A stretch of DNA of 37,999 nucleotides from Fidelibacterota bacterium (GTDB taxonomy: Bacteria > Fidelibacterota > Marinisomatia > Marinisomatales > TCS56), in contig JBDRBK010000033.1 of NCBI GenBank assembly GCA_043822705.1, positions 1 to 37,999 on the forward strand, given 5' to 3'. The first letter of the stretch is position 1. Each line of letters opens with the position of its first letter. A program made the position numbers. This document shows positions 12,001 through 18,000 of this stretch, piece by piece.

Positions 12001-15000
12001 TGTCGATATTCCGGCCCGATTCAAAATTATAGACCACCCGGTGCTCGGCGCCGTGGTACTGGAACAGGCGGCGCACATCCTTAAGCAGCGATATGATCGC
12101 CAGGTACAGGATGAAAAAGGTGATCCGCAGCAGGCCCGATACCAGGTTGAAAGTCAGGGCTTCTTTTTCGATGTCCAGTAATTTGGTGGTGATCCACATC
12201 GGCCCGACCATGAATAACAGCAATGCCAGACCGACGGCAAATACAATCGAGAATAAATTGGCCAGCTTGCCGGGTTTTTTAGCCTGTTCTTCCACGGGCA
12301 GAGCGACGTCGGCCGACCACTGCAGGGTGCCGAAACCGATCCGCATTGATTCAAACAGGGCGGCCATGCCTCGCAGGACCGGCTTTTTCCAGACCGGTTT
12401 CCTGTCGGATAGGGATTGGAATTCGTGGCGATCGATCTGCACTTTGCCTTCCGGGTCGCGCACCGCCGTGGCATAAGCCCCGGGGACGCGCATCATAACG
12501 CCCTCGATGACCGCCTGCCCGCCCACCAGGATCGCCGGCTTCATCAATAACAGAGATAAATTTCGCATGGATATAAAAAGGGCTCCCCCTTCAGATGAAC
12601 GAGAAGCCGCATTTTGATGTTATTTGGCTACTGTGCTTTTTGCTGATATTTGCGATTGAATTTTTCGATCCGCCCGGCCGTATCAACCAGCTTCTGTTTG
12701 CCGGTGAAAAAGGGGTGACACTGAGAACAGATTTCAATTTTCTGATCGCCGATCGTATTGTATACCTGAAAGGTATTTCCACAAGCACAGGAAATTTTCC
12801 CTAATTTATATTCGGGATGAATTCCTTCCTTCATTCCAGACTCCTATTCTAATTCTTTTAGTACGCGGGCTACGCGTTTGATTCCTTCGCGGATATTTTC
12901 AAATCCGGTGGCGAAGGAGAACCGGATATATCCCGGTGCGCCGAAACCATCGCCGGGAACGGTCACCACCTGTGCCTGATCCAGGATGTAATTACCCAGA
13001 TCGGTGGCGGTTTTGAGCACCCGACCGTCGACGCTTTTACCCAGGTAGGCCGTCACATCCGGAAAAGCATAGAACGCACCGCCGGGCAGGGCGCAGTTAA
13101 GGCCGGGGATTTCATTCAATAATTGTACCATCAGATCGCGGCGCTCCTGGAACGTCCGCCGCATTTCCTCCACCGGTGCCTGGTCGCCATCCAGGGCGGC
13201 GATGGCGGCCATCTGTCCGATCGAGTTGGGGCAGGACGTCGCCTGACCCTGATGTTTGGCCATGGCCTTGGCAAGCAACGGTTCCGCTACGGCATAGCCG
13301 ATCCGCCAGCCGGTCATAGCGTAAGTTTTAGACATGCTCAGGCAGGTCACGATCCGGGCGCCGACCGTATTTAACTTCTCGGCCGAGGTGAATGTTTCAC
13401 CGTAAACCAGTCGCTCATAACACTCGTCGGCAATCACCGTCCAGTTGTGCCGGGCGGCAATTTCCAGCAGGCGCACGGTGGCCACCGTGGACCAGACGCC
13501 GCCGGTGGGGTTGGAGGGTGAATTGATGATCACGCCACGGACGCGATCGGTGATCTTGGCCTCCAACTCGGCGAAGTCGGGCTCCGAGTGCTGGTCCGGC
13601 AGAGTGGCGACAAACACCGGTTCGGCATCGGCCAGCCGCACAAACTCCGGAAACGAGACCCAGTAAGGCGTAAACACGATCACCTGATCGCCCTTTTCAA
13701 ACAGGGCCTGACAGGCGTTGAACAGACTGTGTTTTTCGCCGTTGGACACGACCACCATCTCGGGAGTGCATTGCAGCCCGTTTTCCCGCTCCAGCTTCCG
13801 GCAAATCGCTTTGCGTAATTCCGGCATGCCGGCGCCGGCCGTATATTTGGTATAGCCGGCATCCATGGCTTGTTTGGCAGCCTCGCGAATATGAACCGGT
13901 GTATTGAAATCCGGTTCGCCGACGCTGAAATTGATTACGTCGACGCCCTGGGCCCGCAACTCATTGGCGCGGGCCGCCATTTCCAGCGTGAACGACGGCT
14001 GAATCCGCTGGATGCGGTCAGCCAGTCGGAGCGGTGGTTTAGTGTTGTTTACCATTCGTGACGTTTTTTATGATATTCCTCGGTATTGAAGCGTGAATCG
14101 TCGTCCGGTGTTTCCTCGACCGGTTTGCGCCGGAGTTGACGGCGCGGTGGTGGGGGTGGTGGCGACGGTGGCTGAGGCGGTGGCGGACCCTGTTCCTCGA
14201 TTTCGAATTCCTCGGAAAACACCTTGCGCTTGAGACCCGGTCGCCGGGGCGGCCGGTGGGGGGCGCTGGTACGTCGATGCTCGTGAGGCCGGGGAACATC
14301 ATCCATGCCGATGCCTTCGTTCTCGGGCAACATTTTTTCGTCGAAGTCGTCCGGCGGTTCTTTATCGCCGATTTCGCCCTTGATCGAATCTTCGTCAAAG
14401 GAGAACATGGCCGGATTGTAAAGGCCGTAAATCGCGCCGTATCCGCGGGTAATACCGTTGCCGACACCGAGATAATTGGGCAGAATGAAATTAGTCCGGA
14501 ATTCACCGTTGAAGGCACCCCAGTAAGTCTCGTCGACCGTCTTGGGGAAAAGCGATGTCAGGCTCAACCGGGTGAAAATCTTCTCTTCCAGTTCCATACC
14601 CATCTCGCGCGCCAGAAAAACAATATTCTGGCTCAACAGCCGGCTCAGGTAATTGAGTTTTTCCATGCTGTTCAGGTAACGGTAACGAATGCCGGTGGTC
14701 TGGTTCAGCGCCACCCAGGGCGTGATAAAGCGGTACCTGATCATGCGCGTCAGGGGACGGAATAGATCGTCGCGTTCGTCGACATCGGTATCCAGCACCT
14801 GGAAGGTGATGTTGCCAAAATCCAGGAAATCGAATTTATCGACCAACGACAGGATTGGTTCCACGCCTTCGTTGATGCCGACGATGTAAATCTGTTCGTT
14901 GAGTATTTTCACCTGCACCCGGGGATAGAGAAATTGGTCGCGGTAGCGACCGTCCAGAAGCGGAATGATTTCCTCGTCCGGAAACTGGCGCATGAAGACG

Positions 15001-18000
15001 CCTTTTACCTGATACGGCGTCTTTTTAACCGGTTTATCGGTTATGATCTTTAAAGTAACAGTCTTAACAGCAGTGTATGAAGATTCCATTGCTACACCTC
15101 GCTATAATTAATTAATCAAACAAATTAATTACCTTCTACTGGCTCATCGTATTGAGAAATTCCTCGTTGGTTTTGGTCCGTTTCAGCCTTTCCAGAAGGA
15201 ATTCCATCGCCTCGATAACCGTCATCTCATTAAGTAATTTGCGCAAAATCCACAAACGAGCCAACTCCTTTTTTGTCAAAAGTAGCTCTTCTTTGCGAGT
15301 TCCCGAGCGGATCAGGTCGAAGGACGGAAAAATCCGCCGATCACTCAGCCGTCGGTCCAGAACCAGCTCCATGTTACCGGTTCCTTTGAACTCTTCAAAG
15401 ATGACATCGTCCATCCGGCTGCCGGTGTCGATCAGGGCGGTGGCGACGATTGTCAGACTGCCACCCTCCTCGCAATTCCGGGCCGCACCGAAGAACTGTT
15501 TGGGTTTCTTCAGGGCGTTGGAATCGATACCGCCGGACATGATTTTGCCGCTATGCGGGATAACGGCGTTATGAGCCCTCGCCAGCCGGGTGATGCTGTC
15601 CAGCAGGATAACCACATCCTTGCCGAATTCCACCATCCGTTTGGCCTTTTGCATTGCCATTTCGGCGACACTGACATGACGCTCCGGCGGTTCATCGAAA
15701 GTTTAACTGACCACCTCGGCATCAACATTCCGCCGCATGTCGGTCACCTCTTCCGGGCGCTCGTCAATCAGCAGAACGATCATTTCCACTTCGGGATGAT
15801 TCTTGCGAATCGCATTGGCAATTTTTTGCAGAAGCACGGTTTTACCGGTCTTCGGCTGGGCCACGATCAGGGCCCGCTGCCCACGGCCGATCGGCGCGAA
15901 CAGATCCAGAGTCCGGGTGGAAAGATCCTTGGGATCGAACTCCAGGTTGAAGCGCACCTCCGGGTGGTAGGGCGTAAAATTATCAAATAAAATAGCCTGT
16001 TTGATCTGTTCCGGTAAAAAACCGTTGACATTATCGACTTTCAACAAGGCATAAAAACGTTCTTTTTCCTTGGGCGGCCGGATTTCGCCGCTGACCAGGT
16101 GGCCGGTACGCAGGCCGAAACGTTTTATTTGCGATGGACTGACATAAATATCATCGGGACCCGGCAGATAATTGAACCCGGGGCTGCGTAAAAATCCGTA
16201 GCCGTCCGGAAGGACCTCAAGGACACCACGAGCTTTGATCGATTCGTCTTTTTCTTCCTGAAGTTCCAGGATTTTGACGATCAGCTCCTGTTTGCGTCGG
16301 CCGGAATATCCTTGCACCCCCAAATCCTGCGCCAGCTTGGTCAGGTCCTTGATTTTCAGGGCCTGAAGTTCATTAACATCCATGAGGATTCCTTTTTTGT
16401 GTATCTTTGAGTAGTATATCTACAGAAAAAACCTTTTCCGGAGTATAAAATCTGAGAACTTAACGTACGTTAAATTAACCCATCCTCAAACAAAAATCCA
16501 AATTTTAAATAGATTTTGTCAGCGATATAATGGCTGCCGAAAATCAGACCGGTCCTTCCACCGCCGGTCAGTTCCAAAATCCGGTCGAATGCAGCTTCGA
16601 TCGGCAGAATTTCATCCGGGCAGACACCCTGTTCGGTCAGGCTGGCGGCTAACCGTTCCGCCGTCATCAAACCATGGTCCGGAGAGGAAGTGACCACCAG
16701 ATATTTGAACGCGCCCCGCAGCACCGCCGCAATCGAACCGATATCCTTATCGGCTTTCAATGCCAGCAGCCCGATCGGTTCCCCGGTGGAAAACTGCCGC
16801 ACCCCGGCCAGCGCCGACCGGATGCCGTGGGCATTATGAGCGACATCGTAAAAAATTACCGGTTTCCGTGAAAGCAGTTGCATCCGTCCCGGCCATTTTA
16901 CGGTTTTCAAGCCTTTGTGAATGATTTCGTCAGGGATCTGCCGGTCAAAGGCTCGCACCGCTTCCAAGGCGGTCACGGCGTTCGACATCTGGTGCTGCCC
17001 GAGCAACGGCGTGGTAAATTCCCGCGCCCGCCAGCGGAATGTCGTACCACCCGCCAGATCAACCTTTGGTTCCTGCTGCGGGAGCCGCACCGGAATTATG
17101 GCAGCATTACGCTGGCCGGCAATTTCCTTCAGCACGATTGCGACTTCCGCTGTCTGGGGCGCCAGAACCAGTGGAACACCGTCCTTGATGATTCCCCCTT
17201 TTTCCCGGGCGATTTCGACGATATGACGGCCCAGGTACTCAGTGTGATCAATATCCACCGGCGTAATTACGGTCACTGCCGGCTGAACAATATTTGTGGA
17301 ATCCAAGCGCCCGCCCAGACCGGTCTCAATCACCGCAACGGTAACCTGGCACCGGGCGAAGTACCAGAAGGCCAGGGCGGTGGTGGCCTCGAAAAAAGTC
17401 GACTGAATACGGTCAATGTCAAGGCGGAAACTGGTGATAAAATCCACAATGTCGGCATCGGCGATCGGCGTTCCGTCAACGCGGATGCGTTCATTAAAAC
17501 GGATCAGGTGCGGCGATGTATACAGACCGACCCGGTGACCGGCCGTCCGCAGGATCGCGGCGATCGTGGCGGCGGTCGAACCCTTGCCGTTGGTACCGGC
17601 AATATGAATTAGCGGGTATTCCAGTTGCGGATTTCCACAGGCCGCCGCCAGGTCCCGGGTGTGCGTCAGTCCGACCTTGATGCCCAGGCGCTGCAGGTCG
17701 TACAGCCAGTGCAACAGTGCTTGAATATCGGTGGCGTTAGCAGTCATTTTAACGGATATTGGCAGTTACAGAATTAATTCTCAGCCGAAAATATATTACC
17801 CGGAAGGGATTAATTACCCTCGGCCAAAATCGTGTCTCGGGTATTCTTGAATTCTACGATCGCCTGGTAAACTGCTTCGGCGATCTTCTGCCGGTAGGAC
17901 GGTTTCTTCAGTAATTTTTCTTCTTCGGCATTGGATAAAAAACCGGTCTCGATTAAAACGTTGGGCATGCTGGCGCCGACCATCACATAAAATTCCGCCT

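Follow-up and report, generated by a model that had tools for sequence, protein, structure and literature searches.

A Cas6b homolog without the catalytic histidines is encoded directly behind rho in the Fidelibacterota

Introduction

Cas6b cleaves repeat RNA in a sequence-specific manner and leaves an 8-nt 5' tag. The Cas6 fold without catalytic His is also found in a Pyrococcus furiosus Cas6 paralog (3UFC, "a Cas6-related gene"), which we take to be noncatalytic, binding repeat RNA but not cutting it. Unlike the protein described here, that paralog belongs to another Cas6 branch, comes from an array-bearing genome, and presumably acts on CRISPR repeats; it is neither linked to rho nor a housekeeping-type gene found throughout a lineage. 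Rho-dependent termination, in turn, has accessory factors such as NusG, Hfq, YaeO/Rof, and phage Psu.

For the type I-B Cas6b of M. maripaludis, excerpts of the mutagenesis study (PMC3479195) report a drastic loss of cleavage in H38A/H40A, which an earlier note on the DNA analyzed here had overstated as abolished activity, and considerable activity left in the single His mutants. Excerpts of PMC6546412 describe the equivalent loop glycines as essential in Haloferax Cas6b and other catalytic residue sets, of Arg, Lys, and Tyr, as possible within the Cas6 family. Cas or RAMP proteins outside canonical adaptive immunity, a likeness to the case reported here, occur in derived array-less CRISPR modules, namely, a Streptomyces I-E-derived cas5-8 module with a STAND NTPase and haloarchaeal HRAMP (excerpts of the review PMC8730458). 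Those modules are multigene and still predicted to act in defense, whereas the gene described here is a single Cas6b gene in a core transcription/translation cluster, and the same excerpts make no mention of a solo Cas6 of this kind. A literature search found no paper that describes a rho-linked, His-less Cas6b family.

The rho-linked protein resembles M. maripaludis Cas6b (4Z7K/4Z7L) in sequence over the whole 218-aa enzyme, in fold, and in the loop glycines. It differs in lacking the HxH pair, in having mostly Phe at Tyr47 and Asn for the loop Lys, in having neither adjoining cas genes nor an array but a fixed place behind rho, and, in this order, in carrying a three-motif tail of ~125 aa.

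Results

The window, by which we mean the whole 37,999-nt stretch of Fidelibacterota DNA that was analyzed, carries on its minus strand a gene for a genuine Cas6b homolog with the coordinates and Pfam E values given in the earlier note (Table 1). Its description as a full-length homolog was borne out: the profile matches cover the full length of Cas6b, both domains score above their cut-offs (Cas6b_N, 46.2 bits against 25; Cas6b_C, 81.8 bits against 39.4), and 4Z7K is the best PDB match in sequence as well as in fold. In a phmmer search of the PDB, 4z7k_B ranked best (E = 2e-25, query residues 27-220 on chain residues 22-215). PADLOC recognized the protein as Cas6b with an E value of 1.2e-39; a canonical Cas6b from the order scored 5.7e-68. 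The genome has one Cas6b_C match. The start codon is preceded, at a distance of 5 nt, by the Shine-Dalgarno-like sequence GAGGTG. Some members of the family are labeled "CRISPR-associated endonuclease Cas6" at NCBI.

Table 1. Features of the rho-linked Cas6b-like gene and its surroundings in the window
Feature	Position	Strand	Remarks
rho	15136..16383	(-)	Upstream neighbor; interrupted by in-frame TAA at 15703-15705
Spacer, rho stop to Cas6b-like start	15090..15135	(-)	46 nt, AT-rich; holds GAGGTG ribosome-binding site
Cas6b-like gene	14049..15089	(-)	346 aa + stop, ATG start
Cas6b_N domain, PF17955, residues 8-105	14775..15068	(-)	First ferredoxin-like half; Pfam E 5.2e-12
IIPLLDG, residues 41-47, site of lost HxH pair	14949..14969	(-)	P43 for H38, L45 for H40
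F53, position of Tyr47 in M. maripaludis Cas6b	14931..14933	(-)	Alignment column
Cas6b_C domain, PF17262, residues 115-220	14430..14747	(-)	Second ferredoxin-like half; Pfam E 5.5e-23
Glycine-rich loop GVGNGITRGYG, residues 208-218	14436..14468	(-)	Glycines kept, Asn for Lys of GxGK
C-terminal extension, about 126 aa, residues 221-346	14052..14429	(-)	Polyampholyte, from composition
Tail motif 1, LPENEGIGMDDVPRP, residues 254-268	14286..14330	(-)	[VIL]PxP in 113/120 homolog tails
Tail motif 2, RKVFSEEFEIEE, residues 288-299	14193..14228	(-)	EE[FY]x[IVLF][ED] in 105/120 tails
Tail motif 3, extreme C terminus, RFNTEEYHKKRHEW, residues 333-346	14052..14093	(-)	Core [FY]Nxxx[YFH]H in 119/120 tails
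Aminotransferase gene, downstream	12844..14055	(-)	ATG overlaps Cas6b-like stop by 7 nt (ATGGTAA)
rpmE, downstream	12628..12834	(-)	ORF; name read from translation
rpmE, DUF1385-like gene, prfA, prmC	9667..12834	(-)	Codirectional cluster; names read from translations

The poor model (pLDDT 51) that the earlier note had cited is superseded by an AlphaFold model from an alignment of 130 rows (pLDDT 86.3, pTM 0.76; core pLDDT 95-98, Cas6b_N 96-98). The top Foldseek match was 4z7k_A (E = 1.9e-18, target TM 0.79), and the remaining matches listed were all Cas6 or other CRISPR RAMP-protein entries, with 3UFC at rank 9 (E = 4.4e-07). The model core, the match to 4z7k_A, and G210, G216, and G218 show two ferredoxin-like (RRM) lobes and a C-terminal glycine-rich loop.

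Both catalytic histidines are replaced, by Pro and Leu, and Tyr47 by Phe, as had been claimed. The phmmer alignment to 4z7k_B pairs H38 with P43, Y47 with F53, and H40 with a gap; a MAFFT alignment places L45 at H40. In 62 canonical Cas6b rows picked by hand (58 from 150 listed plus 4 loci), the H38 and H40 columns hold His in 56 and 57 rows, respectively, compared with Pro in 60/60 and Leu, Met, or Ile in 60/60 orphan rows. His was found at either column in 0/32 rho-linked relatives outside the order, and the claim that the replacement extends to relatives thus holds on both sides of the order boundary. The Tyr47 column has Tyr in 56/62 canonical rows and Phe in 55 and Tyr in 5 of the 60 orphan rows. 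The loop glycines G210, G216, and G218 are invariant in all 130 rows, whereas position 211 is Lys in 55/62 canonical rows, Asn in 60/60 orphan rows, and Asn, Cys, Ser, or Gln in 32/32 relatives outside the order. Five other residues, Y55, R50, R57, K29, and K61, do not vary among the orphan rows (60/60). The protein lacks the catalytic residues of Cas6b and combines a retained Cas6 fold with the absence of the general-base His, as expected of a noncatalytic Cas6 derivative.

The neighbors are those reported earlier, with rho upstream and the aminotransferase gene and the L31 gene rpmE downstream on the minus strand. The site of the in-frame TAA in rho is an intact Ser in relatives and reads TCA in related-strain contigs. 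The order rpmE, DUF1385-like gene, prfA, prmC also recurs in relatives. In 50/50 loci examined across the phylum that have the Cas6b-like gene (18/18 from 15 families of the order, 30/30 outside it, and 2/2 from family f22), the immediate upstream neighbor, in the same orientation, is rho; in the window and the 18 relatives from the order, the spacers measure 10 to 132 nt. This is the conserved co-occurrence and co-orientation with rho that would mark a Rho accessory factor. Several of the loci examined lack the aminotransferase or L31 gene or have it elsewhere; the Cas6b-like gene's fixed place in the cluster, for which the earlier note had argued, is real, but the constant neighbor is rho rather than L31 or the aminotransferase. 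The Cas6b-like frame is intact in all loci examined. Because rho-rpmE-prfA-prmC is an old gene cluster, the adjacency to rho could be inertia, the insertion merely persisting. In one relative, G270, rho is followed directly by an entire type I cas operon, and the first gene of that operon is a Cas6 of another family.

Cas6b_C was found in 188/233 genomes of the order (186 over the cut-off), higher than the 153/171 of 232 counted before for the two domains but in the same direction. The gene is nevertheless neither strictly core nor a mark of this order: it occurs in 224/401 sampled genomes of the phylum, tail-less forms included, and has been lost from the small-genome family f10 (0/38) and other lineages. 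With rho in 378 of the same 401 genomes, many rho genomes do without it. In f10, rho is present in 33/37 genomes and the Cas6b-like gene in 0/37-38, and in 4/4 loci the gene order is folC-rho-aminotransferase-rpmE, the Cas6b-like gene having dropped out cleanly. Clean loss next to a retained rho was also seen in f17 (4/4), f20 (1/1), and genus g88 of f24 (3/3). Since these lineages keep rho without it, rho can dispense with the Cas6b-like gene.

Where present, the gene is kept under purifying selection. Compared with a related strain, 26/28 listed substitutions in the frame are synonymous, as are 13/15 listed in the tail, and core identity is 40-93% across the order. The 60 rows with a tail group in a single clade (SH-aLRT 98), and a tree joining all 68 His-less rows outscored the free quick tree by 60 lnL units (p-AU 0.94).

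The tail has a median length of 123 aa over 120 homologs. Its earlier description as rich in Pro and Lys/Arg is right for Pro here (19%; family median, 7%), but it overlooked the acidic residues and three conserved short motifs. At 16% Lys plus Arg and 22% Asp plus Glu, the tail is polyampholytic rather than just basic. Motif 1 is ordered with high confidence in the model (pLDDT 83 and 92 for blocks 251-260 and 261-270), motif 2 has the family consensus KKVLSEEFxIE, and motif 3 was recognized by eye in 17/18 loci of the order, its core occurring in 1/22,782 stop-to-stop frames of at least 60 aa in the genome. Tail-less rho-linked forms of 220-260 aa exist in other orders and classes, e.g., in cultured Fidelibacter multiformis, and share both the linkage to rho and the conserved core.

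As the earlier note stated, the gene lies outside any cas locus, and the type I-E cas genes of this genome are on contig C65, where Cse1 and Cas6e were matched. The genome gave no Cas1 match, and a crude exact-20-mer scan of it found no CRISPR-like array. None of the 50 rho-cluster loci has a cas gene among its identified neighbors, in contrast to the canonical Cas6b copies of the same order, which sit in cas loci. Genomes G016 and G116 carry both a rho-linked copy and a separate canonical Cas6b in a cas locus (type I-B; beside Cas12a). Cas1 is rare in the order, as had been said, although the figure is now 15/233 genomes instead of 10/101. Rfam detected only a tRNA in the window, and no dispersed noncoding repeat was found in the genome among 16-mers with at least 10 copies; neither these searches on the RNA side nor the rest of the analysis found an RNA or protein partner.

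Discussion

We favor, with about even confidence, the view that this is a domesticated, probably noncleaving RNA-binding RAMP protein derived from Cas6b and coexpressed with Rho. It keeps the RAMP fold with both lobes and the glycine-rich loop for RNA binding, has lost the HxH pair and the loop Lys, and would no longer serve any CRISPR array. Probably made from one transcript with Rho, it would most likely bind single-stranded RNA and hold it without cutting, acting on transcripts along the pathway of Rho-dependent termination or RNA surveillance. The ~125-aa polyampholyte tail that extends the core in this order probably docks, through its three motifs, onto the core and a partner. The loss of the loop Lys and an R29-to-K change could also point to weaker RNA binding. 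The exaptation proposed in the earlier note retains its main supports, namely, Cas6b homology, loss of the histidines, purifying selection, and an order poor in Cas1, but neither confinement to the order nor strict core status.

An endoribonuclease with a His-free active site of Tyr, Arg, and Lys, processing a housekeeping RNA and not a CRISPR transcript, is unlikely. The fold matches include a Cas6 for nonstructured repeats, 4ill, which presumably lacks the canonical His, and five Tyr, Arg, and Lys residues are invariant in all 60 orphan rows. Catalysis by Arg, Lys, and Tyr sets (excerpts of PMC6546412) and the considerable activity of single His mutants (excerpts of PMC3479195) point the same way. 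Yet the replacements of both histidines, of Tyr47 (mostly), and of the loop Lys came together and persist in 92/92 His-less proteins examined, mutating both histidines costs the closest characterized enzyme most of its activity (excerpts of PMC3479195), and neither Rfam over the window nor the genome repeat scan yielded a candidate substrate. The tail motifs bear on another proposal, a scaffold or adaptor with no nucleic acid role whose RAMP core is a platform and whose tail recruits partners. Besides three conserved short linear motifs in a polyampholyte, the 7-nt overlap with the aminotransferase start and the lost loop Lys fit such a role. We consider it improbable, as tail-less members keep the same rho linkage and conserved core in other orders and classes, several loci have no aminotransferase gene or have it elsewhere, and the glycine-rich loop and fold are almost unchanged. 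Partners suggested under the scaffold proposal are the downstream aminotransferase or the cluster's translation-termination factors.

CRISPR immunity in trans, with the protein maturing crRNA for arrays or cas genes elsewhere or unassembled, would agree with the NCBI name of some members, the type I-E genes on C65, and the fact that metagenome-assembled genomes often lack repeat arrays. It is very improbable given the lost catalytic pair, the fixed place behind rho in 50/50 loci examined, and a presence that does not track cas or CRISPR here: Cas1 is in 15/233 genomes of the order and the Cas6b-like gene in 188/233, the I-E set has its own Cas6e, and in genomes with an I-B locus a canonical, HxH-bearing Cas6b is encoded separately. 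A decaying, functionless relic of a cas operon once inserted behind rho could be read from G270 and the losses in several lineages, but the conservation data contradict it so clearly that it is scarcely credible: substitutions are largely synonymous (26/28 listed), frames are intact in all loci examined, the core stays 40-93% identical across the order, and new clade-specific invariant residues and tail motifs have become conserved.

Returning to the domesticated RNA-binding protein, it might, by analogy with NusG, Hfq, YaeO, and Psu, be a small protein that modulates Rho's choice of RNA, the suggestion coming solely from conserved gene linkage; it has no homology to those factors, and rho persists without it in several lineages. 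A bolder form, which we regard as speculative and rather unlikely, would make it a factor of CRISPR origin that gives Rho specificity: the Cas6b fold, formerly a reader of repeat RNA, would now read a motif in cellular transcripts and, with the tail, direct or block Rho loading there. The loss of the cutting residues and of the CRISPR partners, together with the phylum-wide seat behind rho, suggests that a part of a defense system has seemingly been recycled for everyday RNA work. If it did act as a Rho specificity factor, it would be the first Cas protein to have become part of the core machinery of transcription termination throughout a phylum.

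Conservation of the Cas6b fold and loss of the catalytic histidines

The Cas6b-like protein carries both Pfam domains of Cas6b, as listed in the table below, and matched no model in an NCBIfam search. A sequence search of the PDB returned Cas6b 4z7k as the sole strong match (E value of 2e-25, query residues 27 to 220 against chain residues 22 to 215). We aligned 130 rows, made up of 60 relatives with a C-terminal tail, 8 shorter proteins termed intermediates, and 62 canonical Cas6b proteins, of which 58 were picked by hand among 150 listed Cas6b and 4 came from loci within the Marinisomatales. 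AlphaFold2 run on this alignment produced a model with a mean pLDDT of 86.3 and a pTM of 0.76, with residues 11 to 220 at 95 to 98, which supersedes the poor model of the earlier note (pLDDT of 51). The top Foldseek match for the model was 4z7k_A (E value of 1.9e-18, TM by target of 0.79), and the remaining matches listed were all Cas6 or other CRISPR RAMP-protein entries. Matches in the ESM Atlas were confined to the family's own cluster, which has 2,884 members, and to other clusters of Cas6.

Features of the window and of related loci, and tandem arrays in the same genome
Feature	Position	Strand	Details
Cas6b-like ORF	14049-15089	minus	346 aa
Cas6b_N	residues 8-105		Pfam E 5.2e-12, exceeds curated cutoff
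Cas6b_C	residues 115-220		Pfam E 5.5e-23, exceeds curated cutoff
Gene order		minus	folC, rho, Cas6b-like, aminotransferase, rpmE, DUF1385-like, prfA, prmC
rho/Cas6b-like spacer	15090-15135		46 nt, contains GAGGTG ribosome-binding site
Cas6b-like stop			7-nt overlap with aminotransferase ATG
In-frame TAA in rho	15703-15705	minus	
tRNA (Rfam)	33649-33719		
Canonical Cas6b and Cas12a, L050 (G116:C18)	9744-15218		
Cas6 and type I operon, L107 (G270:C1:88000-103459)	7391-15263		
Tandem array	C25:2705-2958		
Tandem array	C40:15286-15550		
Tandem array	C65:20080-20300		
Tandem array	C115:50571-50966		
Tandem array	C115:80079-80406		
Tandem array	C136:813-1173		
Tandem array	C146:7610-7797		
Tandem array	C216:6202-6379		

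In Methanococcus maripaludis Cas6b, whose numbering is used here for catalytic residues, cleavage is lowered by H38A and by Y47A, falls by more than 50% with H40A, and is drastically lost in the H38A/H40A double mutant, according to passages of PMC3479195. The H38 equivalent is His in 56/62 canonical rows and Pro in all 60 tail-bearing rows, and the H40 equivalent is His in 57/62 and Leu, Met, or Ile in 60/60, respectively. Tyr47 corresponds to Tyr in 56 of the canonical rows and to Phe in 55 and Tyr in 5 of the tail-bearing rows, while the Lys of the GxGK loop is kept in 55 canonical rows and is Asn in every tail-bearing row. Neither histidine column holds His in any of the 8 intermediates or in any of 32 more proteins linked to rho, which come from other orders and classes within the phylum; these 32 also lack the loop Lys, with Asn in 25, Cys in 5, Ser in 1, and Gln in 1. 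The four canonical Cas6b proteins from within the Marinisomatales all have His at the second column and Lys in the loop. The loop glycines G210, G216, and G218 (numbering of the window's protein) are present without exception in all 130 rows, and in Haloferax Cas6b the matching glycines belong to the three positions with the most damaging effect (PMC6546412).

The 60 tail-bearing rows grouped as one clade (SH-aLRT of 98) in a maximum-likelihood tree from a quick search. When all 68 His-less rows were constrained to group together, the tree gained 60 lnL units over that of the free search (p-AU of 0.94), which is consistent with a single origin of these sequences. Within the gene, contigs of a related strain from two groundwater runs show 28 listed differences from the window, 26 of them synonymous; 23 more differences in the 2.5-kb stretch lie outside this count. 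The two replacements, T327A and I260V, both fall in the tail, and the gene also differs by one in-frame 3-nt deletion.

The tail that follows the glycine loop is 95 to 142 aa long in 120 homologues (median of 123), with median contents of 19% Lys plus Arg, 21% Asp plus Glu, and 7% Pro; at 19% Pro, the window's tail is unusually rich in this residue. Three motifs recur: [VIL]PxP in 113/120 tails (residues 254 to 268 in the window, pLDDT of 83 to 92), EE[FY]x[IVLF][ED] in 105/120, and a terminal [FY]Nxxx[YFH]H in 119/120, where the window has RFNTEEYHKKRHEW. When sought as a shared docking motif, the terminal motif had no second occurrence among the frames of the genome, and it is missing from members outside the order, most of which are 220 to 260 aa long.

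Linkage to rho

The rho gene lies directly upstream of the Cas6b-like gene on the same strand in 18/18 loci from 15 families of the order and directly upstream in the best 30 loci outside it. It does so likewise in two loci of family f22 with a very divergent copy (25 to 28% identity, confirmed as Cas6b by Pfam). The aminotransferase gene is absent or relocated in 4 of the 18 loci of the order, and outside the order aminotransferase and rpmE follow in most, not all, of the best 30 loci. Since rho is directly upstream in 50/50 loci, it is the invariant neighbor of the Cas6b-like gene.

A promoter and terminator scan of 12400 to 16700 gave no signal beyond that expected from shuffled sequence, and the spacer between rho and the Cas6b-like gene held no site. 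By eye, a conserved TTGACA-N16-TAATTT lies upstream of rho, which we do not claim as a promoter because it overlaps the C-terminal codons of folC and precedes a hairpin. When the window's spacer was compared with those of six other loci (L032, L035 to L038, and L043), the ribosome-binding region ahead of the Cas6b-like gene read GAGGTGTAG(C/A)AATG in several families. In L032, L035, L036, and L038, a GGTGTAG-like sequence recurs as a second copy 20 to 60 nt upstream, which may be an autoregulatory site or may have arisen by chance.

The window's rho contains an in-frame stop where Rho of 40 relatives has Ser (...EVV[SA]STFDEP...). Because the related-strain contigs from both runs (X1 and X2) have G at plus-strand position 15704, giving TCA for Ser, the stop is confined to the window's assembly and reflects either a genuine nonsense variant or an error in the consensus. 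A predicted complex of Rho (35-row alignment) and the Cas6b-like protein of relative L032 gave scores of 0.01 and 0.31 (mark, 0.32) in runs made without controls and speaks neither for nor against binding.

Distribution, losses, and CRISPR status

Cas6b_C was found in 188/233 genomes of the order (84/100 high-quality genomes) and Cas1 in 15/233, with none in the window's genome, where Cse1 and Cas6e both lie on contig C65. In a sample of 401 genomes of the phylum, a profile of the intermediates matched 224, and Rho was found in 378. Per family of the order, Cas6b_C occurrence is at or close to 100% except in f10 (genomes of 0.4 to 1.1 Mb), where it is 0/38. In all four f10 loci examined, the gene is cleanly gone and the order is folC-rho-aminotransferase-rpmE-prfA-prmC, and clean absence is likewise seen in f17 (4/4), f20 (1/1), and genus g88 of f24 (3/3). 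In two f28 loci, rpmE directly follows rho. In two of the f10 loci L089 to L092, Rho is 428 aa long versus 415 aa in most relatives, and its extra residues, rich in Lys, Asp, and Thr, follow the N-terminal helix.

A few genomes have a second, canonical Cas6b (E values of 1e-34 to 1e-36, 218 to 234 aa), which in genome G016 lies inside a type I-B locus with Cas8b, Cas7, Cas5, and Cas3. Behind the canonical Cas6b of L050 (218 aa) come a gene with an ORF6N domain, two unknown ORFs, and Cas12a (domains REC1, REC2, PI, and RuvC), which continues past the contig end; ORF6N is also downstream of canonical Cas6b in L002 and L005. In L107, from an f28 genome of another class, the gene directly behind rho encodes a Cas6 from a separate family (PF01881 and PF21350). 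After it come a 136-nt repeat in four copies (71 to 100% alike), two unknown ORFs, and then Cas7 (DevR/Csa2), Cas5, an HNH protein, and Cas3. Where the orphan gene lies in other genomes, L107 thus holds a whole type I operon, a single case that hints at a possible origin of the orphan.

Search for an RNA partner

No RNA partner was found with Rfam on the window, where the only match was a tRNA, or among multicopy repeats of the genome. An exact-20-mer scan for CRISPR-like arrays found only coding-type repeats, and the 16-mers present in at least 10 copies came from a 7-bp tandem and from the coding motif NYPNPFN alone; we take the latter to be a secretion-tail domain motif. The genome also contains many tandem arrays with 21- to 22-bp units (also as 44 or 66 bp), spread over many contigs, with 4 to 16 copies and unit sequences that differ between arrays. 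These were rejected as CRISPR because they lack spacers.

Discussion

These data show a Cas6b descendant that parted from CRISPR at, or close to, the base of the phylum, has lost its HxH pair, and has been retained by purifying selection within the rho operon. The conserved fold and glycine loop suggest that the protein would still bind RNA. Because the catalytic residues are lost, it probably does not cut in the manner of Cas6b; according to PMC6546412, Cas6 catalysis can employ Arg, Lys, and Tyr sets, so the lost histidines are no proof of lost cleavage. From the linkage to rho, we infer that the protein may act on transcripts, in a pathway related to Rho. Clean losses of the gene with rho retained show that Rho can do without it, and any tie between the two would be modulatory.

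We found no description of this protein in a full-text literature search, in which the matches listed were judged on titles and abstract openings, and the Cas6 and RAMP coverage seen in portions of a 2022 review of CRISPR exaptation (PMC8730458) includes no comparable solo Cas6. In those portions, exapted Cas proteins mostly remain in defense or mobile elements, such as CRISPR-associated transposons, STAND-linked type I-E derivatives, and HRAMP, whereas here a single Cas6b gene sits inside a rho-rpmE-prfA cluster. Sources name the hosts of members Marinimicrobia, Fidelibacterota, or FCB group, and automatic annotation as "CRISPR-associated endonuclease Cas6" means that CRISPR counts are overstated in the phylum.

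The question is testable because the cultured Fidelibacter multiformis has a tail-less member of 231 aa. The phylum (SAR406, Marinimicrobia, or Fidelibacterota in the sources) is mostly uncultured and abundant worldwide, and it has kept this one Cas6b gene throughout its history. If its product binds specific cellular RNAs, it would be a natural case of a programmable-looking RNA-recognition fold recruited into housekeeping RNA metabolism, possibly into termination control.
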